A DNA stretch of 64,000 bases from Naegleria gruberi (lineage: Eukaryota), in assembly GCA_000004985.1 (NCBI GenBank), contig GG738890.1; one strand, written 5' to 3'. The position numbers and the translations under genes are program-made. Below, in pieces: positions 35,628 through 59,882 of this stretch. How positions within the stretch are numbered: position 1 is the stretch's first letter; each line of letters starts with the position of its first letter. Under the pieces are notes generated by a model that saw nothing but the letters and a program-made list of their open reading frames with translations, did not search any database and was not told the DNA's origin.

Positions 35628-36638
35628 TTAGTAATATTCTTTAATATCCAAAAGGGGAAGAATTATCTGTCCCATCAAAAACATGTACAACATTATTTTG
35701 TGAGCTTGTTCAGAATCATTAAACTGTTGTTCAAAATAGAGAGAGGAATCCATAGTTTCGTATGCAAATTTCTCAGCCACTTGTTTAGAAATCACTCTCT
35801 TCGTTCGTTCTGCCTTATTTCCAATCAGAACAAACTCTGCAATTTGATCTCTCTCTTTATACATACTCTTCAAACTTTCATACATTGTTTTGGCTGTTGT
35901 GAAGGACTTTTCATTATCAATGGCAAATATTATTGGAATAGTTCTGGATTGACGACTAGCTAATGTCAGAGATGGTACTGAAGGGAAAAATAATCCATGC
36001 TCGTATGAATTATTCTCTCCAATCTTGTAATCCACTTTTAAATATTCAGTCCAATTTCTATGGATTTTATATTTCGCCTTATTGTAAACAACTGTTTCAC
36101 AAAATGTTGATCTTCCAACGTTGAAATCTCCGGCAATATATGAATAATGTTTCTTTTTCTCTTTTGGTTGTTTGGCTTGGTATTCATGAAAGCAAGTGCA
36201 GGAATTTTTCAATTGTTGAACTTGTTTCTGCCACAAATCAGGATCAAATACAACTGACATAGGGCTCCTCACTGTCCTATTATCATTAATTAAGCAACAG
36301 GCAGCTTCATAAACATGAGTTTTGAAATATCTCTTCAAAATCTTTCTGTCCAATATTAAATTTTCATCAATTCTAATATTTTCCATCATGAACAAGTCCA
36401 TCATCATTGAATTATTGAATATTATCCCTTTTCTGTAAATTAATTCTATAACGACTTTCCGAAATGATTTACAAACTCTTAGCAGAGAAAACCAACTCCC
36501 TGAAATGTATTCGAAAATTTCACATAAAATTTCATTTGGAATTTGAATGATTTGGGAGTTTTCTCCGATTGGAGTTGAAGAGAATGAACGTAATGTTTCT
36601 AAAATACATGAAAATGGACCAAGTAACAGTTTGATCAT
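35628..36638 (-). CDS. F-box-like protein with C-terminal degenerate Ras/Rab-like GTPase domain
   Basis: F-box-like IPNEILCEIFEYISGSWFSLLRVCKSFRKVV. The C-terminal IPIIFAIDNEKSFTTAKTMYESLKSMYKERDQIAEFVLIGNKAERTKRVISKQVAEKFAYE matches the Rab G3-G4 region (VYDxTxxESF...LVGNKCD). G1 is degenerate (GDFNVGRST), and G4 is NKAE. The listed ORF starts at TTG; the first ATG is at 36636-36638. Confidence 0.5.
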   Translation of the reverse strand: MIKLLLGPFSCILETLRSFSSTPIGENSQIIQIPNEILCEIFEYISGSWFSLLRVCKSFRKVVIELIYRKGIIFNNSMMMDLFMMENIRIDENLILDRKILKRYFKTHVYEAACCLINDNRTVRSPMSVVFDPDLWQKQVQQLKNSCTCFHEYQAKQPKEKKKHYSYIAGDFNVGRSTFCETVVYNKAKYKIHRNWTEYLKVDYKIGENNSYEHGLFFPSVPSLTLASRQSRTIPIIFAIDNEKSFTTAKTMYESLKSMYKERDQIAEFVLIGNKAERTKRVISKQVAEKFAYETMDSSLYFEQQFNDSEQAHKIMLYMFLMGQIILPLLDIKEYY

Positions 36639-36747
36639 TTTTTTGTTGATTTTACGAGTAAAATAGTTGGAAAGAAAATTGGTGTGACAGTGAAAGTCAA
36701 TGAAATAAGGAACCTTCAAATTGTTTTTCTAGTAGTTTAAAGTTAAT

Positions 36748-39700
36748 TTATTTCTTTGAAATTTCCTTCAAGTAATCCACAAGCAACAAGCCAACATCAT
36801 GTTTAATCTTATCAGTGGCAATCTTGAAAGAACCTAATTTACCCAAACCACCAAATCCTGACTTGGATAAGGTATCATCATAATTAACAGGAGTCTTTGG
36901 TTTAAAGCTCTTTTCCTCAGTTTGTTGCATTATGGTATCAATCAATGTAAGAGAAACCTCGGCAATACGAGTAATATTGGCCTTATTGTAAACATTGATC
37001 ATGTGTGGTAAAATGTCTGGATAAACTGAAATGAAAACAGATGGCAATTTGTGGAAAGCTTCTTGAAGAGCAGAGTAAATGGCAATACGTTCTGTATCCA
37101 TATCAACATGTTGTACAGCTGTGATTAAGAATCTAGTGAAGAGAAGTGGAGTGAATGAAGATGAAGAGAAGGTCTTGTCATTGAAGAATACCTTTCCACC
37201 CAAAATTTGGCAAAGTTTTTCAAAGTCTGATGGAATCAAGAGAGCAATGAAACCAAGAATTGAATAATAGAATTTGATGCTGGATTCACTGATAATCTTT
37301 GGTGTGGATGGAAGTGAGGATCCTTCCATAGAAACAGGTGAGCTTGCAGTTGAGAGGTCTGATTGAGAGGAACTTTGCAATTGAGGTTGGTCAATAGAGC
37401 TCAGACCATCTTCTTCTTCTCCCAACATTAACATACGATTGTGTTGCAATCTGGCAGATAAGGTAATGAGATTGGCACAAATGTTGGCAGTGGTGGACTT
37501 TGTTTGTGCATTGGTGAGACCTCTCATCAACAAACAACTCAAAGCAAATGAAAAGTGAGTACGGAAACTAACACCAATGGAAACTTCAACCTTTGTAATC
37601 ACGTTATCAATAAGGGAACCAGAAACACGACAATAACTATTAAAGTATTCTTCGATGGAAATACATTTTTGGAATTGTGGACTGGCACCAACAGCATTCA
37701 AAACACAATCGAACAAGTGAACTACAGCAGGGAATAATGATTCATCACTCAATGCCAATAGCACAATTGGAATGGCAAATACTTGCTTGAGAATTGGTTC
37801 ATCAGGTGAGAGTTTGTAACTGTACTGACCCAAGCACAACAAGGTGGCAATCTTATAGTCAGTACGGAAAGCAGCAGTATGTTCATTGTTTGCAGAGAAA
37901 CTATCAATGAGACGTTCAACAACAAATGGAAGAGTTTCTTGTGTTTCTTCGCCTGGTTTGATGAGTACACCATACATAGCCAAAAGTCTTGGAAGGAAGA
38001 CTGGATTAGTCTTCAAGGCCTTGGAGTGACACATTTGAGTGAGTTCCTTATGCCAACGTTTTTGAATTTCTGGGTCGACCAAATAACAAGTCTTGGTAAC
38101 TTCATAAAAGTAGTGAGCAAGAGTTTCCAAATCCCACATGTTAATTGGTGAAATCTTGAATGGCTTTTCCTTCTTGGCAGGTGTTGTACCATCATTTTCA
38201 AAAGAAACAAATGGATCCATATCACGAGCTCCATCAGTACCCATAAACATGAATTGGAATTTGTCAGAGACTAGGGTATTCAAATGTTGTTGCATAATCT
38301 TCTTGTGTTCATTCGTAAAGTCCAAACTAGTGGAGAGTGAGTGAACAACATTGATAGCAAAGCCACGAATAGTAGCACGTAAGAACATTGATCCTCTTCC
38401 AATCATCATTGAAATAATGTAGAAGAGAGTTGGGAAGTTGTCCAAAACGGAGATTCTGTTTTGGAAACTTAACATGAGCAAGAATCTGCTATAGATAATA
38501 ACCTTAGCCCAACCTGGATGTTCTTCAAGAGGTTCAACAACTTCGTGAATTTCATTATCCATAACATCCAACAATTGATCAACAATCATCTTGACAACAG
38601 CAGGAGCATGACCACCTGAAGCCAATGTAACAACCAAATCATTCAAAATATCAACCTTCTTGGACATCTTTGGTCCTGCTTCGTGAGCAGCACTAATAAT
38701 ACATCTCATGGCAATATCAACAAGAGCACCATCCTTTGAAAGTTCTCCCCAAATTTCACTCAAAACAGCAGGATAAATATCTTGGAAGTCAATGGTGGAC
38801 TTGACCAAATCAGGGAACCACTCAGTGGTTCTATCAATTTGAACTTGAGCTTCAAAGTTACTCATCATACTTCCACCAATGATAGACATTTCATAATTTG
38901 CTCCCTTCATTTCAGAGTTCATTTGTTGAACTGGTTGTTGTTTGGAATCATTAGCTTGAGCATAAATCATGGACAAATTCTTAATCCATGGCTTCATGTA
39001 CTTCAATACCAAGTACTTGTATGGCAAACTGACCTTGTTGAAACCACGCAATGCTTCACGAAGGAATTGAGTGGTCAACAAAGGTTTAGCCTTGCTGACT
39101 TGTTCAGATAATGCAACAACCAAGTCACCAGTATTGTGAGGAACACAAATAATATCAGTTTCTAATAAGGTAACTGGGAATTCAAATTGTTCAGCAAGAG
39201 CAGCCAATAAATTGTAAGCTTCGGATCTAGTTCTTGGGAATTTAGATTCCAAGTTGAGGAAACACATGTTAAGTAAAGAACCTGGAATATCTTGTTGACG
39301 AATACCTTCAGCACGTTCTCTACCAACTCTGTCGTCGAGAGTGGCTTCACTCTTTTGTCTGAAAATGGAATTTCTAATATTCATCAAAAGCAAGTCATTC
39401 TTTTCGGCCTTGATCATCAACTTGTTATTACTACCATATTCAACAGAGACATGTTCAGTGTTACCAGCATTTGTTGAAATGGTGGCATGTGAAATTGAAA
39501 GTAATTCAATAAAGTCAATTCTCTTGGTATCGTGGTTGAGAATATTATCTGAGGTAATAACACACAAATACTTCTTTGAAACCTTAACGACAGCATCCTT
39601 CTTTTCACCACGTTGTGAAAGAATGAAAGCAGAGCTGAATGTTGATTCAACATCACGTTCATAATCAAGAGTTGATTGTGGAAGGTCGATATTCTTTCTT

Positions 39701-42700
39701 TCAATATATTCTTCCAATTCACGAACAGAGATACAGAAAGAAACCTTCTTCTTGATAGCCTTTCTCTTAACATAGGAGAACTTTTGAGAGAGGTGAGTCT
39801 TGAGATAGGAATTTGGATTAAAGATGATGGTTCTGGCGCAATTCTTACGAGCACCAGTTGGTAAAGTCTTGAAGAAGTTAACAATGTGGCCAGCTTGAAG
39901 ACCTGTTTCTTCACGTAAACCAGTAACATCAACAACAACTTCGTATGGTTTAGTCCAGAAATTCATCAAAGTCTTAAAGATATGGTACATGACCTTGTCA
40001 TCTTCCTTATCTCCTGTACTTTCAGCAAAGTGAGATCCCAAGTTTTGAGTGATAAAGTAAAAGACTGGTCTTGCTTCCTTGCTTGCACCAGATCTGTAGA
40101 AGATCTTACGTTCTTCAATTACGCTCAAATCCTTATCCTTATTGTCACTAATGAGTTGAATGAGATGAGGAGTGCTATATTCTTCAGAAGCTGAGGCCAT
40201 AGTTGTCTTCTTGACTTCCTTTTCTGGAGGTTTACCCAACTCTGTCATTATAACTTGCATACGTTCAATAGATTCTGCCAATTTCTTTGGGTCAGTAACT
40301 GGAGAAATGATTGAAAGATCACTATCGTCAATAGTCTTTCTGGTATCCATCTTTTGAGTAGATTGTTGACCTGAACGTTGGAGTTGTACCAATCTTTGTT
40401 GCATCTTTTCCATGTTATTGAAGAGGAATCTGTGAACACACAAGAAGTTTTCTTCACGAACTTCATCTTCCATAATAAATTCAGCTTCTTTGAAATCATC
40501 AGGGCACTTGGAAGAAACAGAGTCAAAGAATTGACGAGCTCTATCAAAGTTCTTGGCAACGAATGGATCCATCTTGACCATGAAAGCTTCCTTATTAAAA
40601 CTCTTGGCATCAGAGGCACTTTGTTTTCTTTCAAATTTGATACCATTGGCAACGTTTTGCAACAATTTGGAAATCAACAATAAACATCTGGAAGCTTCAG
40701 CAGTTGGTGATTGATCTACGAGACCAGAAGTCTTTGGAGAAACAATAGCTGGATTCAACAAACGCAAGAACAACAAACCACCAACAACAACGTGTTTGGT
40801 AGAGTGTCTTTCTTCGTCATCATAAACTGGTGGGAATTTGTTATTAACAGATTCTGCCAAATAATTACAAAGATAACGAATTTGAAGTGGGAGCTCATCA
40901 ACAGAAGTAAAGACATGTTCAAGGAAAGCTTGAGCAGTGGCAGCTAATAATGTAGCATTCTTTTCAACAGCTTCATTTGGTTTCAACTTGGTTTCATCTA
41001 CTTCGAAATTACCAGGATCAGAAACAACCTTTTTTACAAGTTCAGACAATGTATCAACAATATACTTGAATCCAACAGAGTTACAATAAGCTGTCAACAT
41101 CTTCGAAGCAGAACTGTTTGCTCTGAAAAGAGTAGAGGAAGAAGATGTTGCATCAACCTCCTTATCAATAGATCTCTTCAATAATTCCAAAGCTTTACCT
41201 CTTTCAGCAAATAATCTGATGAGTGCCTTACACAAGTCATCCATTTCATTTACAGAAACACTTGATACCATCAAGAAGACCAAATCCAAGTTTGGATCTT
41301 GAATTAAGAGATTGAGAAGCTTGTCGTACTTCTTTACACTTTCAGTATTTTGCTCTTCTTCCAATTGAATACCTTGTTTCATGACACGAGTTAATACACT
41401 CAAGAAGGCAGAACGAGTTTCTTGATCTTCAATATAGGTCATCTTCATGAATTGTTCGAGACCGTAGTTAATATTAGACTCGAGCAAATTACCCAAAGAC
41501 AAGATGGTATATTCACGCAATTGTGGATGAGCATCCTTATCAACCTTGGATCTTGTCAAGTATCTTGAGAGGAATGAGAAGTGCTTGATGAATTCACGCT
41601 TGTTCATATCATCATTCTTTTCACCATTTCCAGCCGATTGTTTATCACGAACTTTGGTAAAGTTCAAATCCTTGAGAACAGCAGAAATTGCCTTCATACA
41701 CAAAGCATCCAAGTTAGGGAAATCAAGTTCAACAACTGATGTTGTACTACTGGCAGCTGTCTTGTTGACGAATTCACTAGTCCATTCAGTAATGTGTCTC
41801 AAAGCTTCAAATCTGAACATAATTTCATTGTTAAAGGTGATATATTCCTTACGCTTCATCATGATATCAATCAAGATACATAATTTACACTTGATAACGT
41901 TATAATCCTTATTCAAAACCAATTGGGAACAATAACGAATAAAGCTCAAAATGAGAGTTTCAAACTTGGCCATGGCTAAATCTTCAGAATTTTCTTGGGC
42001 TTGTTCAAGGACAGAACGAACAATGTGAATGGCCTTTTCTACGAATAAAGTAGAAGAGGAAGAAACACGAACAATGGAAGCACCTTCTTCAAAACATCCA
42101 GAAACATAACTGTGCAAAGATTGGAACAAGACACCATATAGTGAAGGAGCCAACTCTGTACCAATAGTTTGAGCAACATTGTCACGAATGAGTGGAACAT
42201 CACTCACAACCAATCTCATCAAATTTCTAATCAAATCATCCTTCATGGAAAAGTCCTTCTTTTCCTTCTTGAGAGTGGTACCACCACGAACTCCTCTAGC
42301 AGATAAACTACCATCATTAGTACTGTCATCTGAACCTTGATCCTTGATTGGAACTGGATTGTTGGATGGATTCAATAAAGTTTCACTTGATTGTAAGCAA
42401 ACACCACCCATAGAACATAAGAATGCTGTATAGTTCTTCCACAAGTTCTTCAAACGAGTATGTTCAACTAATCTGGCATCATCAATGAGTTCCTTATTTC
42501 TAATTGAACCTTCCTCGAGAGTTTTGGTAAAGTCCTTCCAACGAGAGTACATTTCAATGAAAGCAGCCAAGTTGGCCTTTGTTTGCAATTCAACACGACG
42601 CAAGAGACGACGAATTGATTTTTGTTGGTGATTTCTGGTTTTACCTAGTTCATCCAATTTAGAAATCTTACGATAGAGTTGATAATTTTGAGCAATACCA

Positions 42701-45249
42701 TTGTGAGTTTCCTTATTTTCCAAAATATCAATCATGTCACACAAATCTCCAAAGACACCAGCAGCAGTTGTCCAAATATCTGGATCAGTGGAACATAAAA
42801 GAACCAACAAGGTTGATTCAGCTGATTCCCACATTTGTGTACGCTTTCTACTGGCTAAGTTTTGGTCGGTAATCTTATCTTTGTGTAAACTCAAGAATTT
42901 GTTTGATGCAGTACAAACATCCTTGACTAGTTCTAAAATGGTTGTAACATTTTGTCCCTGAGATTCCTTATCTTGGAATAAGATGAAACATAATCTAGAA
43001 ATAACAGAAGAACTCAAATCAATGAAACCTGTAGCAATATCTTGAGGACACCATTGCATAATATAGTGAGGTTGGAACAATTTTTGAAGTAATTTGTAAG
43101 CTTGAGCTTGAACTTGATAATTTGATACGCCTTCTAAACAATTGACCAAACCAACAAAGAAGTACAAAATTTCGTTAATGTGGCCAGAAATATTGTCACT
43201 AGTATTTTCCAATACAAGTCTAGGTTCAGCAAAGAAGACAGCCAAACAAGCTAATAAAGTCTCAGTGGAAGGAGGGGTAGTAGATCCAGAACTTGAACCA
43301 CTTGGTTGGGCAACTGATTGGCCACGCTTATTGTACAAGAGACTTTCTTGTTGGAGTAATTCTTGGAACATGTTACGAACAAATTTTGCAATATGTTTGT
43401 AACTGTGAGCAAGAGTTGGATGCCACTTGAGGGATGTAGAATTCTTTCTAGCAAGTTTTAACATGGCTTTAGCAAGAGCCAATTTAAAAACTGTATTCTT
43501 GGTTTTGAAACAGTGTGGGAAAATGTAACTGGTTACGTGTCTTTGATTGATTCTATAAGCAGAAACGAAAAAGTCAACCATTAATTTCACATCAACGTCA
43601 TCTGTACCATTTTTACGAACTGGATTATCAACATTCATTAAACGTTCATGTAATGCATTTTGAACTTCACTGTTTAGGAAACGGAAAGCTGTCAAATCAC
43701 GACTCTTCAAATAGGTACTGGCCTTGTAAAAATCTACAAAACAAACAACTGCAGTATCAGAATTTACATCACGCTTAGTATTCTTTTCCTTGAGAGCTTT
43801 GAGAATATTTTCCAAGAATTTGTACTCCTTCTTTTCAGATGGCTTTGGTTTATCACCTTGTTTAACAGCCATAATTGTATTGGCAAAAACTTCAGGACAC
43901 AAGAGAAGAATCATTGTTTGGAGTGGCCAAATGAATGGAGCTTGTTTCTTCAATTTTCTCTCTGCAATAACATTGAAAAGTTTTTGTGGACCTCCTGGTA
44001 ATTCAGTTTTGTTTTTACAATTTCTAATGAATTGATGAGGATAGTTAGTAATCCAATTCCAAACTGCTTGTCTCAATGGACCTGCAAGAGCAACAAAAGC
44101 TTTTGCCTTCAATTTTGCTTGAACTTCATTCAATAATGAAATTAATCTAGTTAATTTAGCATTGTCAAAATTAATATATTCAATCATTTGATAAATTCTA
44201 TCATCAACTTCGTCTGATTTCATCTTTTTGAAAAAGTCTTCAACTCTAACAAAAACAACTTCAAAATTAACAACAGACAATTTGAACAAGACACGAGCAG
44301 CCAAATGTTTAAGATATTGATGTGGTCCCTTCGTCCTTGTCGATTCATCAGTTGAATTATTGTTGGCAGTATTTACATTACCACCACTTGTACTTAATGA
44401 CCTAATATTGAACAATGTATCAATAATTTGTGTTAAAAGTGTTTCAGAGTAATCATTGCCTAATTTTGTAATTTCACTTTCATTAAATCCAGCTGGAGGT
44501 GCCAATTCTTCATCTGATGTTGAACCAGAATCATCAACAGTTGGTTCACCAGATTGATCAGAACTTGGTTCACTATAATCAGAGGCAGTAGTAGTAGCAT
44601 CTAGACCTCCAGTACCTGCATCAACATTGGAAGAATCAGCTTCAATCATTAACAAGTGATCATCATCAAATCGTAAATCTAAACGATCATACTTGATTGC
44701 AGCACTTAGGGTTTTCAAAAAGAGTTGGAAAATGATGATTTTTGAACGAATGAAACGTTCAGAAACTTCCTCTTCAATAGCATGAAGAGTTTCAGGTGGA
44801 ATTTGTGAACCAACTCCACTTCCTGTGTTATTATTATTGTTATTATTTGGATTGGCACCTTGTGCAATGTTTTTAATACCATCGAAGAGGTTTAATCTAC
44901 TTTGGGTTGTTGGTCCACTATTAGGAATGAGGAAAGAACCTCCTGTTGTTGTTGTAGTAGTATTATTATTATTCGTAGTGTTTCCACCATTACTTCCCAA
45001 TGATGAGGATGATCCAAATGTACCTGTTGTTTGATTAATTATTGATGGATTTGTTGAAGAATCACCTGAAGCACCTGGTGTAAGATTACCACCACCAACA
45101 GACAAGGCTAGAGTTTCAGGTGAAGACATTACATTTTGATAATTCTTCTCCAATGATGTATTCACGTGGAGTAGACCATTGATTACAGTATCAAGTTGAT
45201 AATTGGAGAGTTTGATCAGGGATGTTGCTGTTTGACGCAAATCTCCCAT
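36748..45249 (-). CDS. NF1: Neurofibromin (NF1) orthologue: RasGAP-related domain + Sec14/PH-like region, single 2833-aa ORF
   Basis: RasGAP signature FLRLLNPAIVSP with flanking TLFRANSSASKMLTAYC and LPLQIRYLCNYL. The Sec14-PH region RKIFYRSGASKEARPVFYFI...KPYEVVVDVTGL matches NF1 [20 protein letters not shown]...KPYEIVVDLTHTG. Also DIPGSLLNMCFLNLESKFPRTRSEAYNLLAALAEQFEF and KYLVLKYMKPWIKNL. Confidence 0.9.
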   Translation of the reverse strand: MGDLRQTATSLIKLSNYQLDTVINGLLHVNTSLEKNYQNVMSSPETLALSVGGGNLTPGASGDSSTNPSIINQTTGTFGSSSSLGSNGGNTTNNNNTTTTTTGGSFLIPNSGPTTQSRLNLFDGIKNIAQGANPNNNNNNNTGSGVGSQIPPETLHAIEEEVSERFIRSKIIIFQLFLKTLSAAIKYDRLDLRFDDDHLLMIEADSSNVDAGTGGLDATTTASDYSEPSSDQSGEPTVDDSGSTSDEELAPPAGFNESEITKLGNDYSETLLTQIIDTLFNIRSLSTSGGNVNTANNNSTDESTRTKGPHQYLKHLAARVLFKLSVVNFEVVFVRVEDFFKKMKSDEVDDRIYQMIEYINFDNAKLTRLISLLNEVQAKLKAKAFVALAGPLRQAVWNWITNYPHQFIRNCKNKTELPGGPQKLFNVIAERKLKKQAPFIWPLQTMILLLCPEVFANTIMAVKQGDKPKPSEKKEYKFLENILKALKEKNTKRDVNSDTAVVCFVDFYKASTYLKSRDLTAFRFLNSEVQNALHERLMNVDNPVRKNGTDDVDVKLMVDFFVSAYRINQRHVTSYIFPHCFKTKNTVFKLALAKAMLKLARKNSTSLKWHPTLAHSYKHIAKFVRNMFQELLQQESLLYNKRGQSVAQPSGSSSGSTTPPSTETLLACLAVFFAEPRLVLENTSDNISGHINEILYFFVGLVNCLEGVSNYQVQAQAYKLLQKLFQPHYIMQWCPQDIATGFIDLSSSVISRLCFILFQDKESQGQNVTTILELVKDVCTASNKFLSLHKDKITDQNLASRKRTQMWESAESTLLVLLCSTDPDIWTTAAGVFGDLCDMIDILENKETHNGIAQNYQLYRKISKLDELGKTRNHQQKSIRRLLRRVELQTKANLAAFIEMYSRWKDFTKTLEEGSIRNKELIDDARLVEHTRLKNLWKNYTAFLCSMGGVCLQSSETLLNPSNNPVPIKDQGSDDSTNDGSLSARGVRGGTTLKKEKKDFSMKDDLIRNLMRLVVSDVPLIRDNVAQTIGTELAPSLYGVLFQSLHSYVSGCFEEGASIVRVSSSSTLFVEKAIHIVRSVLEQAQENSEDLAMAKFETLILSFIRYCSQLVLNKDYNVIKCKLCILIDIMMKRKEYITFNNEIMFRFEALRHITEWTSEFVNKTAASSTTSVVELDFPNLDALCMKAISAVLKDLNFTKVRDKQSAGNGEKNDDMNKREFIKHFSFLSRYLTRSKVDKDAHPQLREYTILSLGNLLESNINYGLEQFMKMTYIEDQETRSAFLSVLTRVMKQGIQLEEEQNTESVKKYDKLLNLLIQDPNLDLVFLMVSSVSVNEMDDLCKALIRLFAERGKALELLKRSIDKEVDATSSSSTLFRANSSASKMLTAYCNSVGFKYIVDTLSELVKKVVSDPGNFEVDETKLKPNEAVEKNATLLAATAQAFLEHVFTSVDELPLQIRYLCNYLAESVNNKFPPVYDDEERHSTKHVVVGGLLFLRLLNPAIVSPKTSGLVDQSPTAEASRCLLLISKLLQNVANGIKFERKQSASDAKSFNKEAFMVKMDPFVAKNFDRARQFFDSVSSKCPDDFKEAEFIMEDEVREENFLCVHRFLFNNMEKMQQRLVQLQRSGQQSTQKMDTRKTIDDSDLSIISPVTDPKKLAESIERMQVIMTELGKPPEKEVKKTTMASASEEYSTPHLIQLISDNKDKDLSVIEERKIFYRSGASKEARPVFYFITQNLGSHFAESTGDKEDDKVMYHIFKTLMNFWTKPYEVVVDVTGLREETGLQAGHIVNFFKTLPTGARKNCARTIIFNPNSYLKTHLSQKFSYVKRKAIKKKVSFCISVRELEEYIERKNIDLPQSTLDYERDVESTFSSAFILSQRGEKKDAVVKVSKKYLCVITSDNILNHDTKRIDFIELLSISHATISTNAGNTEHVSVEYGSNNKLMIKAEKNDLLLMNIRNSIFRQKSEATLDDRVGRERAEGIRQQDIPGSLLNMCFLNLESKFPRTRSEAYNLLAALAEQFEFPVTLLETDIICVPHNTGDLVVALSEQVSKAKPLLTTQFLREALRGFNKVSLPYKYLVLKYMKPWIKNLSMIYAQANDSKQQPVQQMNSEMKGANYEMSIIGGSMMSNFEAQVQIDRTTEWFPDLVKSTIDFQDIYPAVLSEIWGELSKDGALVDIAMRCIISAAHEAGPKMSKKVDILNDLVVTLASGGHAPAVVKMIVDQLLDVMDNEIHEVVEPLEEHPGWAKVIIYSRFLLMLSFQNRISVLDNFPTLFYIISMMIGRGSMFLRATIRGFAINVVHSLSTSLDFTNEHKKIMQQHLNTLVSDKFQFMFMGTDGARDMDPFVSFENDGTTPAKKEKPFKISPINMWDLETLAHYFYEVTKTCYLVDPEIQKRWHKELTQMCHSKALKTNPVFLPRLLAMYGVLIKPGEETQETLPFVVERLIDSFSANNEHTAAFRTDYKIATLLCLGQYSYKLSPDEPILKQVFAIPIVLLALSDESLFPAVVHLFDCVLNAVGASPQFQKCISIEEYFNSYCRVSGSLIDNVITKVEVSIGVSFRTHFSFALSCLLMRGLTNAQTKSTTANICANLITLSARLQHNRMLMLGEEEDGLSSIDQPQLQSSSQSDLSTASSPVSMEGSSLPSTPKIISESSIKFYYSILGFIALLIPSDFEKLCQILGGKVFFNDKTFSSSSFTPLLFTRFLITAVQHVDMDTERIAIYSALQEAFHKLPSVFISVYPDILPHMINVYNKANITRIAEVSLTLIDTIMQQTEEKSFKPKTPVNYDDTLSKSGFGGLGKLGSFKIATDKIKHDVGLLLVDYLKEISKK

Positions 45250-46402: not shown

Positions 46403-49400
46403 ATGATGATGGCAAATGTCACGCCCAATACAAAACAATCAAGAAAAAATAAAATGGCCAACAATCGATCATCACCCTCTTCCGTTGTCATTTGGTGGGT
46501 GGTAGCAATAGCCATCTCTTCCGTTCTCTTCTTTGTTCCACTCATTTACTTGATTGCCACAATTCCCCATCTCATTGCAATTTGTAATTCACTCTTTGCC
46601 TTTGTAGTACTCTCACTTGTTGGTTTCTTCTTGATTTTGGCAGTGTGGGTTGGAATAATGATCAGAGATATGAATAAGAATGTTGTCAACAAGACTACAA
46701 AGAGGAGTGTATTGGAGGAGGAGGTGGATGAAGGTCGCTTGAATGATTATCAGAGAACCTTTGGAAATCAGGCTAGATTGTTGAATGGTGGTGGCGATGA
46801 TGAAATGTCGGGAGAGGAATATGATGATGATGATGAAGAATCATTGATTCAACAACAACAGGGAAATAACGAATTAGTAATGGAGGAATCGAATAGAGCT
46901 GCCAATTTGATTGAAGAAACTCGTAGAAATCAACAATACAAACAAACTACAGAGTATATTGTACAGTTTTTGAGAGTTGGCTCCTTTTTGATTTTCATTG
47001 TACTTTTAATTGGATTGTTACTGTTTTCTATTTGGATTGGAACAACAAAGAGTAGAGCAGAAGGTCTTCTTCGTGGATCCATGTCAATTAATGAGATTGT
47101 GACAAGAGCCAATGCTGGAGATGTTTCCTATAAGGAAGCTCAACCATACATTCAGAAATTTTTGGAACAATTAGGTCAGTCTACTGTCAAGGTTGAAAGA
47201 GATTCAAATGATGTAATTCACATCACTGCCCCAAATGAGTATACACTCTATTTCACTCAAGGTTTTGTTCATGCTCAAGAGAGATTGTGGCAAATTGATA
47301 CTTTGAAGAGTACAATCAAGGGAGAATTATCCAGCTTGTTTGGATATGGACTCATCTTCTCTGACCAGTACTATCTTACCATGGGATTATATGAAGCTGC
47401 TCAGAGAGATTGGGCTAATTTGGGTGATGATTTAAAACAAAGATTGGAAGCCTATGCTTACGGATTGAATACCTATGCCAAATTATTGCCAGGTCTTCCT
47501 GTTGAATTTCAACTTTTGAGTTACAAGCCAGGTGTTTTCACTGGTGTTGATATTTTGGCTCATCACAAATATATTAGTTTAACTCTTGCTGGTAATATTC
47601 ACTCTGAAATTGCTAGATATGGTCTCGAATTGGTTGGTTTATCATATGATAGAATCAAGACTATTCTTCCAAATTCTTATCCAAATGGATTCCCAATTAT
47701 TTCATCACCAAATGCTAATATTACTTATCAACCAAGTTCAACCACATCATCCACAACTAGTAGAAGTAGTAGCAGTTCAACTAGAAAGAAATCACTCTCT
47801 GCATCCATTTCTGTTTTGGCTGGACAAATTATCTCAGGTCTGGAAGATTTGGTAGATATCTTTTCATCTTCATCCACTATAAGACAGAGATTTGCCCTCT
47901 CCATGTTCGATCCACAAAATCACTTCTCCTCTCCAGAACAAAAGAATGCCTTCCTTCAAGCTAGTAATAATTGGGTCATTGGTGGTGCCTACACATCAAC
48001 TGGAAAACCATTACATGCCAATGATATTCACCTTCATTTCCAAGGTCCAAATATTTTCCTCTTGATGCACCTCAAGATTGAAAGCTCAACAAAACCAATG
48101 CAAGTTATTGGAGCTTCAATTGCTGGATTACCATGTGTTATTGTTGGCAGAAATGGAAATGGAATTTCATGGTCAATTACCAATGCTGGAGCAGATACAA
48201 TGGATACTTATTTAATTGATGAAAATGCAGATGGTCTCACCTATAACTATGGTGGCGCCAAAAACAGTTATACTATCAAGACAGTTACACTTTCAGTTAA
48301 GGGAGGCTCCAAGGCCATGTTTAATGTTACAACTGCAGGAAGTTTTGGACCTCTGGTTGATAAATTGTACAATATTCCAAATCTCCCAAAGCAAAAGCGT
48401 CTAGCCCTCAGATATTTGGATGTTTTATTGAAAACTGATAAGAGCACTCAAACATTCTTTGATTTGCCTTATACAACCAACTATGATCAATTTATTGAAG
48501 CTTTTAAAAATCTCAATGCTCCAGTTTTGAATATTCTCTATGCCGACAATAATAATAATATTGGATATATTATGGCTGGTAAACTTCCAAAAAGAGGTTC
48601 GACCACTACTGACAATTTAGGATTGAGACCTGTCAAGACCTATGATAGCACTGAAAAGTCTTACACATGGGAAACTGATGATAGTGGAAATTACAAGACC
48701 AATGCTTTTGATGATTTACCAGATATTGCTCCAGAGGTAGCTACTTCACGCTTTATATTCTCTGCCAACAACAAGGCTGAAGCTAATCCTGTCACTACCA
48801 TTACTAATGACTATAGCTTGTTGTATGGAAGAAGTATGAGAATTCAATCCTTGGTTTCCTCCCTCATTGCCAGAAAGAATATCACACTCTCTGATATGGC
48901 AAAAGTTCAAAGTGATAGTGTCAGTGTGCTCTACTTGATGAATAGAAATATTTTTGCTCGTATGAAACCTTTCACAGATACTTATAAGGAAGGTGTCAGA
49001 AATGATTTGGCCAACAATTGGGATGGTGATATGAAGCCAGATTCCAAGTATGCAACCATTTTCGAGTACTGGATGACCTATCTCACTAATTTGGCTGCCA
49101 ATGAAACCAAACAAGATAATGACTTACCATTCTCCAAAAAGAAGAGTTTCCCTCTTTCATTGAGATATGCCCTCTCTGCTATTCAAACAGAACTCTCCAC
49201 TGGAGTTACCGATCAAAATTGTAAGTCATTCTCCAGTGACAAGACATGTCTCGGATACGCCAAGGATCAATTGGAAGCTGTTCTTGTTGCTTTAAGATCT
49301 AAATTCTCATTCGTTCCACTTTACAGTTCCTACAGAATTCACCAAACTAAATTTACTCATCCAATCTTTGGCGCCTATGGTTTAACAGGATGTTTGGGAA

Positions 49401-49672
49401 CAAGAATATCGAGAAAGAGTGGTGGTACTGACACTATCAATGAAGGTGGTCCATCTGATGCCAACTTGTCAAACAATTTCGGTCCAACCTATCGTCAAAT
49501 TATTGATCATGCCAATCCAGAAAGCTCAGTATTTATAATGCCAATGGGTCAATCAGGAAATATCTTTTCTGACACGTACGATAATTACTTACAAGCATGG
49601 GAAGATGGTAAATACATTCCAATGAAAACTAAGGATTATATTGTTAGGGATGTTTTGATAATTGCCAAATAA
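46403..49672 (+). CDS. Penicillin amidase (penicillin/cephalosporin/AHL acylase, Ntn-hydrolase S45) family protein with N-terminal TM anchors
   Basis: Alpha-subunit block FTQGFVHAQERLWQIDTLKS...GELSSLFG. Beta-subunit N-terminal nucleophile context SNNWVIGGAYTSTGKPLHANDIHL. N-terminal hydrophobic helices VVIWWVVAIAISSVLFFVPLIYLIATIPHLIAICNSLFAFVVLSLVGFFLILAVWVGIMI. Confidence 0.8.
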   Translation: MMMANVTPNTKQSRKNKMANNRSSPSSVVIWWVVAIAISSVLFFVPLIYLIATIPHLIAICNSLFAFVVLSLVGFFLILAVWVGIMIRDMNKNVVNKTTKRSVLEEEVDEGRLNDYQRTFGNQARLLNGGGDDEMSGEEYDDDDEESLIQQQQGNNELVMEESNRAANLIEETRRNQQYKQTTEYIVQFLRVGSFLIFIVLLIGLLLFSIWIGTTKSRAEGLLRGSMSINEIVTRANAGDVSYKEAQPYIQKFLEQLGQSTVKVERDSNDVIHITAPNEYTLYFTQGFVHAQERLWQIDTLKSTIKGELSSLFGYGLIFSDQYYLTMGLYEAAQRDWANLGDDLKQRLEAYAYGLNTYAKLLPGLPVEFQLLSYKPGVFTGVDILAHHKYISLTLAGNIHSEIARYGLELVGLSYDRIKTILPNSYPNGFPIISSPNANITYQPSSTTSSTTSRSSSSSTRKKSLSASISVLAGQIISGLEDLVDIFSSSSTIRQRFALSMFDPQNHFSSPEQKNAFLQASNNWVIGGAYTSTGKPLHANDIHLHFQGPNIFLLMHLKIESSTKPMQVIGASIAGLPCVIVGRNGNGISWSITNAGADTMDTYLIDENADGLTYNYGGAKNSYTIKTVTLSVKGGSKAMFNVTTAGSFGPLVDKLYNIPNLPKQKRLALRYLDVLLKTDKSTQTFFDLPYTTNYDQFIEAFKNLNAPVLNILYADNNNNIGYIMAGKLPKRGSTTTDNLGLRPVKTYDSTEKSYTWETDDSGNYKTNAFDDLPDIAPEVATSRFIFSANNKAEANPVTTITNDYSLLYGRSMRIQSLVSSLIARKNITLSDMAKVQSDSVSVLYLMNRNIFARMKPFTDTYKEGVRNDLANNWDGDMKPDSKYATIFEYWMTYLTNLAANETKQDNDLPFSKKKSFPLSLRYALSAIQTELSTGVTDQNCKSFSSDKTCLGYAKDQLEAVLVALRSKFSFVPLYSSYRIHQTKFTHPIFGAYGLTGCLGTRISRKSGGTDTINEGGPSDANLSNNFGPTYRQIIDHANPESSVFIMPMGQSGNIFSDTYDNYLQAWEDGKYIPMKTKDYIVRDVLIIAK

Positions 49673-51928: not shown

Positions 51929-54900
51929 ATGAAAGTAAAGATCTCATTTCTCTTGCTCAATATTTTATTCCTTCTCTTCCTGTCAATATTTCTTGACACT
52001 TCATTGAGTGCTGACACCTTAACTTTTGTTTCGAAAGGAAATGCGCCTCAAACAGGTTCTTCTTTATATTTCCATAAAGCTAGTAACAAGTTGTATGCGT
52101 TTGGAGGTACCACTGATAGTAACAATGTTGTAAATACTATTAAATCTGTCAGTGTCACGTCAACTGTGTTACAGAGCTTGTCAAATCTTAATTCTAACTT
52201 CTCAACGACTAGTTTGTCCATTAGTACTTCTTTATCATCTGTAGGATCAGTATCAACAGCGTTTTCTTATGGAGCTTTTCATATTTTGACAATTGACAAT
52301 CAAGAATATGCATATATATTTGGAGGATCAAATAATCGTATTCAAAGAGCAAATACTTCCTCATTAACATCATTTACAACACTTTATAGTACATTACCTG
52401 AAGCCTATTTTGGAGGAGCTACCTTTAGAACAGAAAGTTTCGTCTATTTGATTAGTGGAAGTGGAACGAAGGCAATGTATAGAGCTAGTGTCAGTAATCC
52501 AACAAATTGGACAAATATTGGTAATTTTCCAGTTACTATTGTGATGCCAGGAGTTTTTACTTACAAAAGAAAAGTTTATTTGGTTGGAGGTTCTTCTTCC
52601 TATTTAGGAGGAACTAATTATAATACTATTTACTTTGCAACTTTTGATGCTCTTGACAAGATGACAAGCAGTTCGAGTGGAGTTTGGTCCCTATCCACTT
52701 CCAAGTTACCAGTAGCAGCAGGTAGCTCAACATTCTTCATGACTGATACATATGCTTACATGACATCTGGCACTCTTGGTACAAAACTTTACCGAGCTCC
52801 TCTTTCTTCATTAACAACCTGGACAGATAGTACACTGACCACCCCTTACTCAGCCTCTCTCGTCACTTCCTTCACAAGTGGTAATACTCTTCTCTACTAT
52901 GCTGGTTTGAAATATTCGACAATTTTATTTTGGACTTCAATTTCATCACTTGATAATTTTTACACTTCACAAGTTGAAGAGTTTAAGGGATGTTTTAGTG
53001 TGCCAGTTTCGGATTTGACTGTTTGTAATGGAAGAGGAGGCTGCGTTGCAAGGGATGTATGTCAATGTAGTGATGGGTTTTATGGAGATGCTTGTCAGTT
53101 TGAAAGAGTTTGTTATGGAGTGACAGCTGGCAGTTCGAATGTTTGTTCTGGAAATGGAGTTTGTATGGCTGATAATACGTGTGTTTGCAATAGTGAAAGT
53201 ACTGGTTCTACATGCTCTGATTTTACTTGTTTTGGTATTTCTCCAACTGATTCGAATATTTGCTCTGGAAATGGAAATTGTCTTTCACATGACAAGTGCC
53301 AATGTAAAACTGGATATTCTGGACAAAATTGTGATTCTTTCACTTGTTATGGACTCCCACCAAGTGATCCAAAGGTTTGCTCTTCCTTAGGTCCATGCAT
53401 TGGTTACAACAATTGTTCATGTCCAAATTCTCTGGCCGAAGATTGTTCTGCATTTGGATGTAATGGAATAAGCGCCAATAATCCGAGTGTTTGCTCTGGA
53501 AATGGGATTTGCACTTCTTTGGATGTTTGTGTTTGTAATGAGACAGTTAGTGGTCAATTTTGTAATGTGTTTTCATGTTTTAATGTTTCGAATGATGATT
53601 CGAATGTTTGTTCGGGAAAGGGAAGTTGTTTGAAATCAGATATGTGCTCTTGTCAGAATGGATACAGTGGTAGCCAGTGTGAATTATTTTCATGTGGTGG
53701 AATTAGTCGTTTGGACAGTTTAGTTTGTTCTGGAAATGGAAGTTGCATTTCTCCTGATTTGTGTAAATGTAATGAGGGATGGAGTGGTGATAATTGTGAA
53801 TTTCCATCATGTTTTGGATATTTATCAACTGATGGATTAGCTTGTAGTGGTTATGGAACTTGTGTTTCGAATAATAGCTGTCTCTGTGCGCAAGGATTTC
53901 GTGGTCAATCATGTGAAATTTACACTTGTAATGGCAAATCAAATCAAGAAATTCAATGCTCTGGAAATGGTCAATGTTCTCCTCAAACTCTCACTTGTAA
54001 TTGTAGAGAGAATTACTTTGGACAAGATTGCGAATATTTCACTTGTTTTGGTGTGCTAAATAATCAAACAAATGTTTGCTCTGGACATGGCATTTGTTTG
54101 GGTATTAATAATTGCTCTTGTGAGAGTGGTTATTTTGGATTTTCATGTGAATTGCATTCATGTGATGGTATTCCACAATTGTCTGACATTTACAAGAATA
54201 TGACAAATAGTCCTTTCTCAAATTGGGAAAACCAAATTCCTTGTAATGGTAGAGGAGCATGTACTGCACTCGATACTTGCCAATGTGATTCTGGTTATTT
54301 GGGAAAATATTGTTCAGATTTCAAATGTTTTGACAAGCTCGTTAATGACACAAATGTTTGTTCAGGGAATGGAACATGTACATCTCCAAATAAGTGTCAA
54401 TGCAAAGAAGGATTCTATGGAAATGAATGTGAAAGTTTTGATTGTTTTGGAATTGAAAAATCATTCAAAACTGTTTGTTCTTCAGCTGGCATTTGTATTT
54501 CTCCTGAAAATTGTTTTTGTAAGGCAGGATTTTATGGAGCTGATTGTTCCAAGTATGAATGTTATGGTCTATTATTTAATAATTCGAATGTTTGTTCAGG
54601 AAATGGCAAGTGTTTGGAGCCAGAAAGTTGTCAATGCAAGGAAGGATTCTTGGGTAATAATTGTGAACTTTATTATTGTTATGGAAAGGTCAATAACGAA
54701 ACGAGTGTTTGTGGAGGAAATGGAAAATGTTCTTCATTGAATACATGTGAATGTAGGGATGGATATATTGGGGATGAGTGCTCTGTTTACAAGTGTTTCG
54801 AAACATTTAGTAACGATTCCACAGTATGCTCCTCTTTTGGTAAATGTTCTGGAATTGATACATGTATTTGCAATGCAGAACATTTTGGAGAAAAGTGTGA

Positions 54901-57900
54901 ATTAACTTGGTGTCATGGAAAGGCTTCAAATGATAGCTCAGTATGTAACGGTAAAGGAATTTGTAACAGCTTTGACACATGCATTTGTGATCAAGATTAT
55001 TTTGGTGAAACTTGTCAAGATTTCAAATGTGGAACCCTGTTAAAGAATGATTCTATGGTTTGTTCTGGAAGTGGATCATGTTCAAGCCCAAATAATTGCA
55101 CATGTTTGGATGGTTATTTTGGAACTCATTGTGAATTATTTGAATGTCAAGGAAAGCTCCTCAATGATTCTAATGTTTGCTCTGGAAATGGAACATGTCA
55201 ATCTCCAAATAAGTGTCAATGCAAAGAAGGATTCCATGGGAATGAATGTGAAAGTTTTGATTGTTTTGGAATTGAAAAATCATTCAAAACTGTTTGTTCT
55301 TCAGCTGGCTCGTGTATTTCTCCTGAACATTGCGTTTGTAGGGCAGGATTTTATGGAGCTGATTGTTCCAAGTATGAATGTTATGGTCTATTATTCAATA
55401 ATTCGAATGTTTGTTCAGGAAATGGCAAGTGCTTGGAGCCAGAAAGTTGTCAATGCAAAGAAGGATACTACGGAAATGTATGTGACAGTTTTGATTGTTT
55501 TGGAATTGAAAAATCATCAGAAACTGTTTGCAACTCAGTTGGATCTTGCATTTCTCCTAACTTGTGCAAATGCAAGGATGATTTCTATGGAGCTACCTGT
55601 GAAAAGTTTAAATGCTTTGGTGTTAATATGACCGATGAAAAAGCATGTAATCAGAAAGGTACATGTATTGGAAAAGACTTGTGCACTTGTGAGAATGGAT
55701 ATTTCGGTAGTAACTGTTCCCAATTTGGTTGTTTTGGAATTGTTAGTAGCAATGCTAGTGTTTGTTCGAATGGAAATGGCAAATGCATTGGTAGAGATGA
55801 GTGTGAATGTTTAACAACCAAAAATGGTTATTACACTGGAAATGAATGTCAATACTTTGTGTCTAACATTACACAAGTTGCATTTGTAATAGATATTGAT
55901 GAAAATAGAAAGGAAATATTATCAGAACCTGGTGAAGATAGATTTGTGAACTTAAAAGTAACAATGAGCTCGTTGTCAAATGTTACCTTCTTGGTATGGT
56001 GTAATAATTGTACAAATTTTACAAATACTGGAATGGATAATGCTCTTGTTTTTTATACACCCCAAATGGTTATTGATGTTTCTAATTTAGCTGTAGGAGG
56101 TACATTTGAATTTTCAGTCATTAGTCAGAACATGGCAGAGAAAACCGAATTCTCCAATATTAGAAAGTTTATCTTGGCAATAGTGGTTCGCCCTATTGAA
56201 CCTTATAAACCTACTGACGTACGAATTGAAAGTTTAGAGGTATCCAACTTTCCAAAGGCAATTATCTACTCATCCTCTCTCAAGTTTGATTTCATTCTTT
56301 CCAAATTGACTTTGAACAATTTAGAAGGCAGCAAATTGTTAATGAGTGATTGTATTTCACTCACTGACGAATCTTGTCAATTAAGATATAATTATAATGT
56401 ATCTGTTTTTGATACATTTAAAAAAGAAGAAATTATCTATGGTTTGAAGGTTAAAGGACATGTATTCTGCCCCGTAGCCAATTATACTAATACTCTAAAG
56501 CTTTCACCTGCTATTAATGTTCAGTTCGCTCTTCCAACAAGTAACTTTTCCGCTTCTTCCCTCAAAATAGTTTTTAGTTTTGAAATTGGAAGTGAAAATT
56601 ATTCAATCCAAACATATTCCCAATCAGAATTAGTTTCTGTGAGTGCTGAAGGTATAAAACCTCCAAATAATTATCAAGTACAAGTTTCTCCTCAAACATC
56701 AGTAGCCATAGTAGAGAATGTCACAATAGCTTCACCTGTTTGGAATTGTGACAATGAAAATTTCAATCCTATTCGCTACGCATTTGGTTTTTACAATCCT
56801 ACTGTCGATAGTAAGAAAGCATGGATAAAGTTGACAGAATATTCCACAAATCCAACAGCTAGTTTCCCACTTCCTTATCTATCCAAGCAATTAAGCACTT
56901 CCATGCAAGTAGAAGTTGTAATATTTGTGATGGACTCTCAAGGGAATAGTCAATATCTGAAAATAGGGCAAGCAAAAGTTTCTCCATTTCAAGGAATTTT
57001 GCCTTCCTCCATGAGTGATCTAGAGAGAAGTGTTCTAGCCTACGATCAATTTACTCTATCCCATATGGCTGACAGTTCTGTGGTTGTGGATATCGTTAAG
57101 AGTATTTCTGTAAATCCTGCAGATCCTGGATCTTCATTGAAAGTTCTGGACTCGCTGACTTCTGACAGTAGCTTGTTGAGTAATCCAGATATTGCAAGTC
57201 AAGTGGCTGATACAGTTACCTCCTTCTTGTCAAGTGCCCTTGAACTTTATCAAAACGAGCTTAAAACAAATGGTTTTGTCTCGTCTAAAATGTCAGAAGA
57301 AGCCAAATCATCAGCTGTTTCAGTAATTTCCAATTTGTTTACATCTGTTGACACAAATTCAACAACATCTGCAAGTAATGATATTGCCAAAAAGACAGAA
57401 CAAATGATTCTCTCCTTCTCCAAGTTAGTTCTAGCCTCAGAAGTTCCAAAAGTGTTAGAAACAAGTGACTCTGGATCTCTCGCATTACCAGTGTTACAGT
57501 ACAATACTCCATCCATGAATGTTACATTCTCCTCATTCATGCTTAGTGGTGGTGCTTCAAAGAGGTCTTCTAACAATCAAGGTACTTATCAATTAACAAG
57601 TGGAGAATCAAATATTCAAATAGACTTGAATGAAATAGTTGGAAAATACGGAGGCTATTCGAAACCACTTGGATTGTCCCTTGTCACTTTTGAAAAGAAT
57701 ACCAAGGTTGATAACTTTTCCCTTTCCAATCCAATGTCCTCTATAATCAACGAGTTGAAATATTACCAAAACTCTGAAATTGTGAAGTTGAATGATTTAG
57801 ATAGTCCAATATCTTTGCAATTTGGAATTAACTCTGCTTCTCTTTTACTCCTTTCTAAAGGGGCAAGCATTACCTCTCAGGAAAGTTTCAATCAAACTCA

Positions 57901-59833: not shown

Positions 59834-59882
59834 GTTATTGAAGATGATAGGATAGTTTGAACTTTATCGTGTAACGATGATA

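Follow-up and report, generated by a model that had tools for sequence, protein, structure and literature searches.

A membrane-anchored penicillin-acylase-family protein of Naegleria gruberi and a clade of long eukaryotic acylases

The gene and its product

The window analysed here is a stretch of 64,000 nucleotides (nt) from contig GG738890.1 of Naegleria gruberi (assembly GCA_000004985.1), a heterolobosean amoeboflagellate (Discoba, Heterolobosea). At 46403..49672 (+) it holds a single uninterrupted ATG-to-stop open reading frame (ORF) of 1089 amino acids (aa) plus stop, which encodes a protein of the penicillin-acylase family. An earlier reading of the DNA, referred to below as the original prediction, had taken this gene for a candidate bacterial gene that had entered the amoeba. 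Our analysis points instead to a resident gene, one member of an old eukaryotic clade of long, membrane-bound acylases. The ORF is 100% identical to the N. gruberi NCBI entry "penicillin amidase domain-containing protein" (1072 aa), so the gene model is intronless, as had been predicted. The annotated protein begins at Met18 (nt 46454) of the longer ORF, and either Met1 or Met18 may be the start that is used.

The layout of the protein was taken from hydropathy and from a full-length AlphaFold model, which are mutually consistent.

aa 1-27 (+): N-terminus, rich in Lys and Arg, probably cytosolic
46484..46555 (+), aa 28-51: first transmembrane helix (TM1), first arm of the hairpin, by hydropathy; AlphaFold helix 26-53 with a per-residue confidence (pLDDT) >90
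46556..46591 (+), aa 52-63: TM1-TM2 loop of 12 residues, ATIPHLIAICNS, putatively exoplasmic, holding Cys61 (nt 46583-46585)
46592..46663 (+), aa 64-87: TM2, second arm of the hairpin, by hydropathy and AlphaFold
46664..46981 (+), aa 88-193: acidic linker with 24 Asp/Glu against 13 Lys/Arg, putatively cytosolic and mostly predicted to be disordered
46832..46849 (+), aa 144-149: DEESLI, within the linker, fitting the sorting-motif pattern [DE]xxxL[LI]
46982..47050 (+), aa 194-216: TM3, putative signal-anchor helix, placed where the bacterial relatives have their single N-terminal anchor
47051..47707 (+), aa 217 to ~435: alpha-subunit part, including the next motif
47264-47299 (+), aa 288-299: FVHAQERLWQID, motif in the alpha block
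47708..47962 (+), ~aa 436-520: Ser/Thr-rich spacer, predicted to be disordered, ending at Ala520; its boundary with the alpha part is approximate
47963..49669 (+), aa 521-1089: catalytic beta subunit
47963-47965 (+): Ser521, N-terminal nucleophile of the beta subunit
47963-47986 (+), aa 521-528: SNNWVIGG, nucleophile motif
aa 534-544 (+): GKPLHANDIHL, motif after the nucleophile
49391-49393 (+): Cys997, in the beta subunit, specific to the eukaryotic clade

The original prediction had named the alpha-block motif and the stretch SNNWVIGG...GKPLHANDIHL, and both were found, at aa 288-299 and 521-544 respectively. It had also described a membrane-anchored acylase with three hydrophobic helices and an acidic linker ahead of the domain. 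All of these are present and the anchoring holds, but the real order is helix, helix, linker, helix.

The full-length AlphaFold model (predicted template modelling score, pTM, 0.82; mean pLDDT 81.6) has helices at 26-53, 62-102 and 157-219, with residues 101-156 disordered. In that model pLDDT is below 50 over most of 436-516 (436-475, 478-496, 498-501 and 503-516), and in a model of the ectodomain (pTM 0.80) it is below 50 for residues 424-519; both models are confident save for the stretch preceding Ser521. The models thus predict a disordered stretch of ~80-95 aa directly before Ser521, which would be compatible with the removal of a spacer by autoproteolysis, and this spacer is presumed to be a propeptide lost after self-cleavage.

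The hairpins of N. gruberi and N. lovaniensis are 67% identical, a degree of conservation that equals that of the beta subunit (64%) and is double that of the linker (33%). In N. lovaniensis and a third Naegleria the DEESLI motif reads DEQSLI. Five N-x-S/T sequons lie within the ectodomain.

Family membership and catalytic site

The assignment of the protein to the penicillin-acylase family of N-terminal nucleophile (Ntn) hydrolases, which the original prediction had based on motifs, is borne out by profile, structure alignment and catalytic positions alike. The match to PF01804 (Penicil_amidase) covers aa 261-1078 and profile positions 1-670 of 675, with E=1.4e-150 and 504 bits, far above the cut-off of 21.3. 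The best solved relatives by sequence are D-succinylase (7eby, E=2e-37) and a class III glutaryl-7-ACA acylase. The predicted model matches the Ntn alpha-beta-beta-alpha acylase fold: Foldseek placed it with a probability of 1.00 beside 50 acylase chains, with a TM-score of up to 0.78 on the target, and the companions include D-succinylase, cephalosporin acylase, MacQ, penicillin G acylase (PGA) and PvdQ.

Ser521 aligns with residue 1 of the solved beta chains 4hst_B (glutaryl-7-ACA acylase), 4hsr_B and 35sz_C, so the predicted nucleophile region does fall on the catalytic serine of the family. This residue is invariant in alignments of 13, 43 and 141 relatives, in which N522, W524, D541, H543, N789 (of an A-N-N motif), R810 and R813 are also invariant or nearly so. 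We take His543 to be the equivalent of His23-beta and Asn789 that of the oxyanion-hole residue, with the roles established for PGA, cephalosporin acylases and PvdQ. Across the eukaryotic clade described below, S521, H543, N789, R810 and R813 are present in 47 of 47 members, and the last four occur in at least 90 of the 94 other relatives. Membership of the family with an intact catalytic site is therefore practically beyond doubt.

A catalytically dead pseudoenzyme or a binding protein is accordingly a most improbable reading of the gene. Inactive variants do seem to arise in the family, since a bacterial-type sequence on a soil metagenome contig (L080, Ga0326726_10023886) has Ala at the nucleophile position with His543 and Asn789 kept, which may be an inactive form or a sequencing error. 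That case offers nothing specific to N. gruberi, whose catalytic positions are all intact.

Within the family, the protein is not a PvdQ equivalog, nor is it of the PGA or the glutaryl-acylase type. The PvdQ equivalog model (NCBIfam NF051460) gave a partial match of 52.1 bits against a cut-off of 950.

A family of long forms across eukaryotes

An exhaustive phmmer search with the acylase domain against 1.84 billion representative proteins gave 11,479 matches. Of the best 150, about 45 are 900-1200 aa long and built like the Naegleria protein, with a pair of hydrophobic helices at the N-terminus, then a linker of 26-217 aa, one more helix and the acylase domain. A word-indexed protein search had returned 13 proteins only, without any non-Naegleria eukaryotic relative, and its repetition with a 43-sequence alignment and with a low-complexity-free block of 20 sequences added nothing.

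The long forms with a named carrier come from Amoebozoa (Balamuthia mandrillaris, Luapeleamoeba hula), choanoflagellates (Didymoeca costata, Diaphanoeca grandis) and a stramenopile (Platysulcus tardus), and there is also one MMETSP transcript; the named taxa span four supergroups. All named carriers are phagotrophic protists that eat bacteria or other cells. Moreover, four metagenome contigs (40-320 kb) with long forms carry clearly eukaryotic neighbour genes, among them CENP-C, IFT57, ATE1, CNOT11, Rrp44, RB_A/RB_B, Taxilin, LSM and teneurin-type EGF.

Some of these proteins had been entered without the hairpin. In P0014, the closest non-Naegleria match, and in P0039 it was found in an upstream exon or reading frame overlooked by the gene callers (L007:409-774 and L006:7619-8398), with the conserved Cys in IIQLCNSL and ISHLCPQL. 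Several "single-TM" eukaryotic protein entries are therefore probably truncated gene models. The N. gruberi protein itself has all the features of the long form (hairpin, linker, third TM, PF01804 and both of the cysteines treated in the next section).

The bacterial relatives have one N-terminal hydrophobic helix, and because it directly precedes the acylase domain TM3 can be regarded as its counterpart. By this comparison of sequences, the hairpin and the linker are putative additions relative to the bacterial form. Two further long proteins, P0130 (1227 aa) and P0146 (1277 aa), group with the short forms of bacterial type. Neither has Cys997, and the 6-8 hydrophobic segments at their N-termini bear no relation to the hairpin of the eukaryotes, so that this enzyme must have gained membrane domains more than once. 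The [DE]xxxL[LI] pattern was tried as a further feature of the family and dropped, the excess over expectation being weak, and it is kept as a hint at the level of Naegleria.

Two cysteines specific to the clade

Cysteine columns were compared between 47 members of the eukaryotic clade and 94 other matches. Cys997 (GLTGC997LGTR), in the beta subunit, is present in 46 of the 47 and in none of the 94. The same column holds Cys in 0 of 77 bacterial genome sequences and in one of 71 metagenome loci, and that sole locus (L014) also has the hairpin and the hairpin Cys. A scan of metagenomes for further cysteine losses returned almost only bacterial forms. Cys61 (IAIC61NS), at the end of the TM1-TM2 loop, is the only conserved residue in the alignment of the hairpins, with Cys in 37 of the 38 long forms included; it was also found in the recovered upstream exons of L001, L006 and L007. 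The only long form without the hairpin Cys, P0046, is also the only clade member without Cys997. It lies on a 320-kb eukaryotic metagenome contig (L002:10001-12805) and has an insertion of ~35 residues at the position of Cys997.

In all, the N. gruberi protein has five cysteines (61, 578, 940, 949 and 997), of which Cys578 is unconserved. The bacterial sister clade also has the pair Cys940/Cys949 (74-77 of 77), which is therefore inherited, the two residues being candidates to bond locally with each other. Cys61 and Cys997 may in turn form a disulfide that ties the beta subunit to the membrane hairpin, a proposal drawn from this pattern of occurrence to which we give an even chance.

Phylogeny and origin

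Neighbour-joining trees were built with our own script from simple corrected distances over ~680-690 trimmed columns of the domain, the first with 149 full-length sequences and the second with 77 bacterial genome sequences added (226 in total). The long forms came together in both trees, and in the larger one 48 of 49 fell in one clade with zero bacterial sequences inside. The transfer bootstrap (TBE) of this clade was 0.965, 0.93 and 0.94 in three runs; sets of the same size drawn at random had a transfer distance of ~46. Moreover, a hidden Markov model of the eukaryotic clade built without Naegleria and P0014 scored the Naegleria domain at 642 bits, against 553 bits for a model of the remaining matches.

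The sister group is a bacterial clade of 37 sequences (TBE 0.98) from Thermus, Meiothermus, Calidithermus and other Thermaceae, Rubrobacter, several cyanobacteria, Parabeggiatoa and some gammaproteobacterial metagenome-assembled genomes; one contig of this clade was checked and is bacterial (SecG, ClpB, iPGM). Its union with the eukaryotes has a TBE of 0.99 and a strict support of 53%. Sequences of Deinococcus, Chloroflexota and Acidobacteriota are placed further out. Naegleria was thus not found inside the Thermaceae/cyanobacterial clade but in the eukaryotic clade that is sister to it.

A single eukaryotic clade with a bacterial sister is, on these trees, probable. Of the outcome that had been named as contrary to a bacterial derivation, an old eukaryotic clade with no bacterial sister group, the first half was found and the second was not. 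The ultimately bacterial origin of the family stands, as the eukaryotic clade nests in bacterial diversity with a well-supported bacterial sister, and this argues therefore for one old acquisition from bacteria. The enzyme would have been anchored already when it was acquired, and the hairpin and the linker would have been added in eukaryotes.

The patchy distribution could nevertheless result from transfers of the same enzyme, with the same single bacterial origin, from one phagotrophic eukaryote to another and not from vertical descent. The deep branches within the eukaryotic clade are unresolved and at odds with the species tree, every named carrier is a phagotroph, the N. gruberi gene lies ~14 kb from a telomere-like repeat, and a 2026 preprint, which notes the gene in "several protists", takes penicillin amidase as a genus-specific transfer in the diplonemid Rhynchopus. 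However, related taxa do group together in our tree (Naegleria with 100%, two acanthamoebids with 97% and two choanoflagellates with 79% bootstrap), and no strongly supported conflict with the species tree was found in it. We regard such a history as somewhat unlikely.

A resident gene of Naegleria

The original prediction proposed a comparison of the gene with its neighbours in codon usage and GC content, and this revealed no foreign signature. The relative synonymous codon usage of the acylase ORF correlates at 0.955 with that of the other 20 large ORFs of the window, the highest value of all, and its GC content at third codon positions (0.316) is typical for them. Eukaryotic genes flank it on both sides. 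Contamination is excluded by the 350-kb contig, the eukaryotic neighbours and the host codon usage.

Two orthologues were found, one in N. lovaniensis (58% identity) and the other (60%) in a third Naegleria assembled from public reads (Logan SRR29240419). In the latter (L001:351-3982) a 351-nt GT-AG intron (GTAGGT...AATAG) interrupts TM2 after "...LALW", and for this reason P0003, the automatically called protein of 1019 aa, is without TM1 and TM2. Joined across the intron the sequence reads LWVAIMLRD, exactly as in N. lovaniensis. At this site the N. gruberi copy is uninterrupted. In N. fowleri a "penicillin amidase homolog" fragment (Q25548) appears in protein-identification tables for extracellular vesicles and immunogenic antigens (PMC9312180, PMC7350353), and in Willaertia magna a penicillin amidase gene (PMC6892926) and a low-level transcript (PMC7285305) have been reported.

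That the Naegleria lineage acquired a bacterial acylase gene by horizontal transfer in recent times is thus a very improbable explanation. The family is indeed overwhelmingly bacterial, most of the 11,479 matches being proteins of ~800 aa with one TM, the N. gruberi copy is intronless, and its identity to bacterial relatives is as high as to eukaryotic ones. Nevertheless, codon usage and third-position GC are those of the host, and orthologues exist in at least three Naegleria species, one of them bearing an intron, in addition to the penicillin amidase of Willaertia (PMC6892926). Most of the next-best matches of the domain search are long-form or eukaryotic proteins, the first two at 37% and 33% identity, and sequences of a bacterial clade (P0019, P0022, P0023) are interleaved among them. 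Moreover, the hairpin, Cys61 and Cys997 are common to Amoebozoa, choanoflagellates and a stramenopile and occur in no bacterial sequence examined. Among the hallmarks of a recent transfer, neither atypical composition nor bacterial nearest relatives nor absence from related eukaryotes was found here. We conclude that this is a resident, expressed gene of N. gruberi and not a transfer into Naegleria, and that the recent-transfer reading is largely refuted, given composition like that of the neighbours, an architecture shared with other eukaryotes and a clade marked by derived characters.

Topology and proposed mechanism

Across the long-form family Lys and Arg are more numerous before the anchor than after it, and this, together with the five sequons in the ectodomain, suggests a type-II-like orientation in which the acylase domain would probably be lumenal or extracellular. 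The N-terminus and the linker would be cytosolic, with the acylase domain in the lumen of the endomembrane or phagosomal system or outside the cell. A cytosolic N-terminus would put the TM1-TM2 loop on the same side of the membrane as the ectodomain.

The precursor would then cut itself between Ala520 and Ser521 and shed the disordered spacer, which would yield a membrane-held alpha subunit and a catalytic beta subunit. To our knowledge, self-cleavage before the nucleophile takes place in all studied members of the family. A disulfide between Cys61, at the exoplasmic tip of the hairpin, and Cys997 would leave the freed beta subunit covalently fixed at the membrane surface, where the enzyme would take a hydrophobic acyl chain off an N-acyl amide. 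For this account as a whole, with the old acquisition of an anchored bacterial enzyme and leaving the substrate aside, our rough probability is 0.6.

Several points weigh against it. The trees are neighbour-joining trees on simple corrected distances, and the strict bootstrap of the eukaryotic clade is low, at 18-27% (strict values of 11-27% in all), because one or two rogue sequences move; the clade was therefore judged by TBE, by the comparison of hidden Markov models and by derived characters. Over the trimmed columns the mean identity of Naegleria is 0.338 to the eukaryotic members and 0.336 to the 77 bacterial genome sequences, which include the sister clade and more distant ones; Naegleria is thus no closer to the former, the eukaryotic sequences being divergent, and monophyly rests on the tree, the shared architecture and the cysteines together. 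The covariation of the two cysteines amounts to one double loss and one joint origin, and the topology comes from the distribution of charges only. The [DE]xxxL[LI] motif is conserved within Naegleria but occurs in only 6 of 35 long forms (1.9 expected). Finally, the Thermus thermophilus penicillin acylase with which the protein is compared below is counted in the sister clade by way of congeneric Thermus homologues.

Comparison with known acylases

The most instructive known system is the penicillin acylase of T. thermophilus HB27 (TthPAC, TTC1972), whose uncleaved N-terminus anchors it to the outer face of the cytoplasmic membrane; it is self-processed, works best near pH 4 and favours substrates with a hydrophobic aliphatic acyl chain, such as the octanoyl of penicillin K (PMC3461476). 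The Thermus homologues in the sister clade have the same N-terminal anchor. The TthPAC-like clade of Thermaceae, Rubrobacter and cyanobacteria is the sister of the eukaryotic clade (TBE of the union 0.99), and TthPAC offers the model of an uncleaved N-terminal anchor with the enzyme on the exoplasmic face and of self-processing into alpha and beta subunits. In the N. gruberi protein TM3 (aa 194-216) occupies the position of that anchor directly before the alpha subunit, with an orientation suggested by the Lys/Arg counts. The stretch after the anchor (..LPQ..G...L.GL...V.V.R...GV..I.A) and the pair Cys940-Cys949 (74-77 of 77) are also shared. In contrast, the bacterial proteins are shorter (~770-900 aa), with a single anchor and a shorter spacer, and they lack the TM hairpin, the cytosolic linker and Cys997 (0 of 77).

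D-succinylase (DSA) of Cupriavidus sp. P4-10-C (7eby/7ea4) is the best solved relative by sequence (E=2e-37) and by Foldseek (E=3e-37, TM-score 0.78 on the target), with the same Ntn fold and the GSNNW and ANDPH motifs. However, the identity is ~22%, and this is a soluble bacterial enzyme that acts on N-succinyl-D-amino acids and lies outside the sister clade; nothing suggests that its substrate is that of the N. gruberi acylase. The acyl-homoserine lactone (AHL) acylases PvdQ, MacQ, QuiP, QqaR and AiiC belong to the same Pfam family and have the same catalytic machinery; the acyl chains that they remove are hydrophobic, and the enzymes are secreted or cell-associated. They differ in the score against the PvdQ equivalog (52 against 950) and in a Foldseek identity of 14-16%, and the Deinococcus sequences are outside the immediate sister clade. 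E. coli-type PGA and the class I/III cephalosporin (glutaryl-7-ACA) acylases share the Ser nucleophile, the equivalents of His23-beta and of the oxyanion-hole Asn, and the alpha/spacer/beta precursor, but at E-values of 1e-5 to 1e-18 and 15-20% identity, and they are soluble periplasmic enzymes with a cleaved signal peptide.

What is already known is that the gene is annotated, and that "penicillin amidase" is mentioned in passing in papers on Naegleria and Willaertia as a curiosity of antibiotic biosynthesis or as an antigen. No functional study of any eukaryotic PF01804 protein was found in the literature searched, and a 2017 review of AHL acylases has plant FAAH and porcine acylase I as its only eukaryotic entries. 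The eukaryote-wide clade, the hairpin-linker-anchor architecture and the paired cysteines appear to be undescribed within the reach of our literature searches.

Possible substrates

By analogy with these relatives, the substrate is most likely a hydrophobic N-acyl amide that would be cleaved at a membrane surface, perhaps within an acidic compartment. That it is an aliphatic N-acyl compound from bacteria can be put forward tentatively: AHLs, lipopeptides or lipid amides are attractive because all named carriers are phagotrophs. In the bacterial sister clade one protein of 1226 aa (P0032, L010:562-4242) is a fusion of the acylase domain with a PAF-acetylhydrolase-type lipase domain (PF03403), which hints at lipid-related substrates in that branch.

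A serious rival, though an unlikely one, is that the enzyme is a housekeeping amidase acting on an endogenous membrane N-acyl lipid, unrelated to bacterial products. The tight hold of the catalytic subunit at the membrane, by three TMs and the proposed disulfide, would suit such a role, as would the conservation of the family across distant eukaryotes and the transcription reported in axenically grown Willaertia (PMC7285305). Nevertheless, the named carriers are all bacterivorous or phagotrophic protists, and the characterised relatives act on exogenous acyl amides.

It is improbable that the enzyme is specifically an AHL acylase used by the amoeba for quorum quenching. The position that corresponds to the carboxylate-binding Arg57-beta of cephalosporin/glutaryl acylases is presumably hydrophobic here, by comparison with the KAC-1 sequence, and this was counted in favour of that activity. 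In addition, Deinococcus QqaR and Anabaena AiiC hydrolyse C4-C14 or C8-C14 AHLs (PMC5474475). On the other side stands the very low score against the PvdQ equivalog, and at 20-40% identity the substrate range within this family is not readable from sequence.

The most far-reaching version of the account is doubtful. It would make these proteins an undescribed group of polytopic, membrane-stapled Ntn acyl-amidases in phagotrophs of at least four supergroups, derived once from an anchored acylase like those of Thermus or cyanobacteria and linked through Cys61-Cys997. They would strip acyl chains from bacterial N-acyl compounds (AHL signals, lipopeptides, lipid amides) on the lumenal side of phagosomes or on the outside of the cell, as quorum quenching on the side of the predator or as digestion.

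Genomic setting

The nearest upstream gene is a divergent one at 36748..45249 (-), which is NF1-like with RasGAP and CRAL_TRIO_2 domains. From its start codon to the acylase ATG there are 1153 bp, in agreement with the ~1.1 kb between the NF1 promoter and the acylase gene in the original prediction. On the orthologous contig L001, which reaches just 350 nt upstream, an NF1-like, PX or EGF neighbour was not found. The other features of the window that were observed are the following.

35628-36719 (-): ORF of 363 aa with an F-box-like domain and part of a Ras-family GTPase domain, immediately 3' of the NF1-like RasGAP gene, which has the same orientation
51929-59833 (+): ORF of 2634 aa with many teneurin-type EGF repeats; at its C-terminus an RGS-domain match slightly under the Pfam cut-off (23.0 against 23.9 bits)
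53-56 kb: strongly positive GC skew (~0.3)
59864-62869, both strands: two "ORFs" of ~1000 aa, artefacts of the N run
59883-62830: run of N (assembly gap)
63542-64000: telomere-like array, 76.7 copies of the 6-nt unit TTTGGG/GGGTTT with 99% matches, reaching the window end

This array places the acylase gene ~14 kb from the end of a chromosome or scaffold. Perhaps by coincidence, the unrelated eukaryotic contig L002 also encodes a teneurin-EGF protein, 4.5 kb upstream of its acylase homologue.

Significance

The case illustrates how sparse sampling of eukaryotes can let a "bacterial-looking" gene of one protist pass for a recent transfer. The N. gruberi gene is one member of a conserved eukaryotic enzyme family with an architecture of its own. 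The disulfide between the hairpin and the beta subunit, if true, would be a new way for Ntn hydrolases to keep a self-released catalytic subunit at the membrane. Should members of the family prove to break down acyl amides of bacteria, whether inside phagosomes or on the cell surface, this would represent a new element of predator-prey chemistry, and the N. fowleri orthologue would then also be a candidate surface or vesicle antigen.

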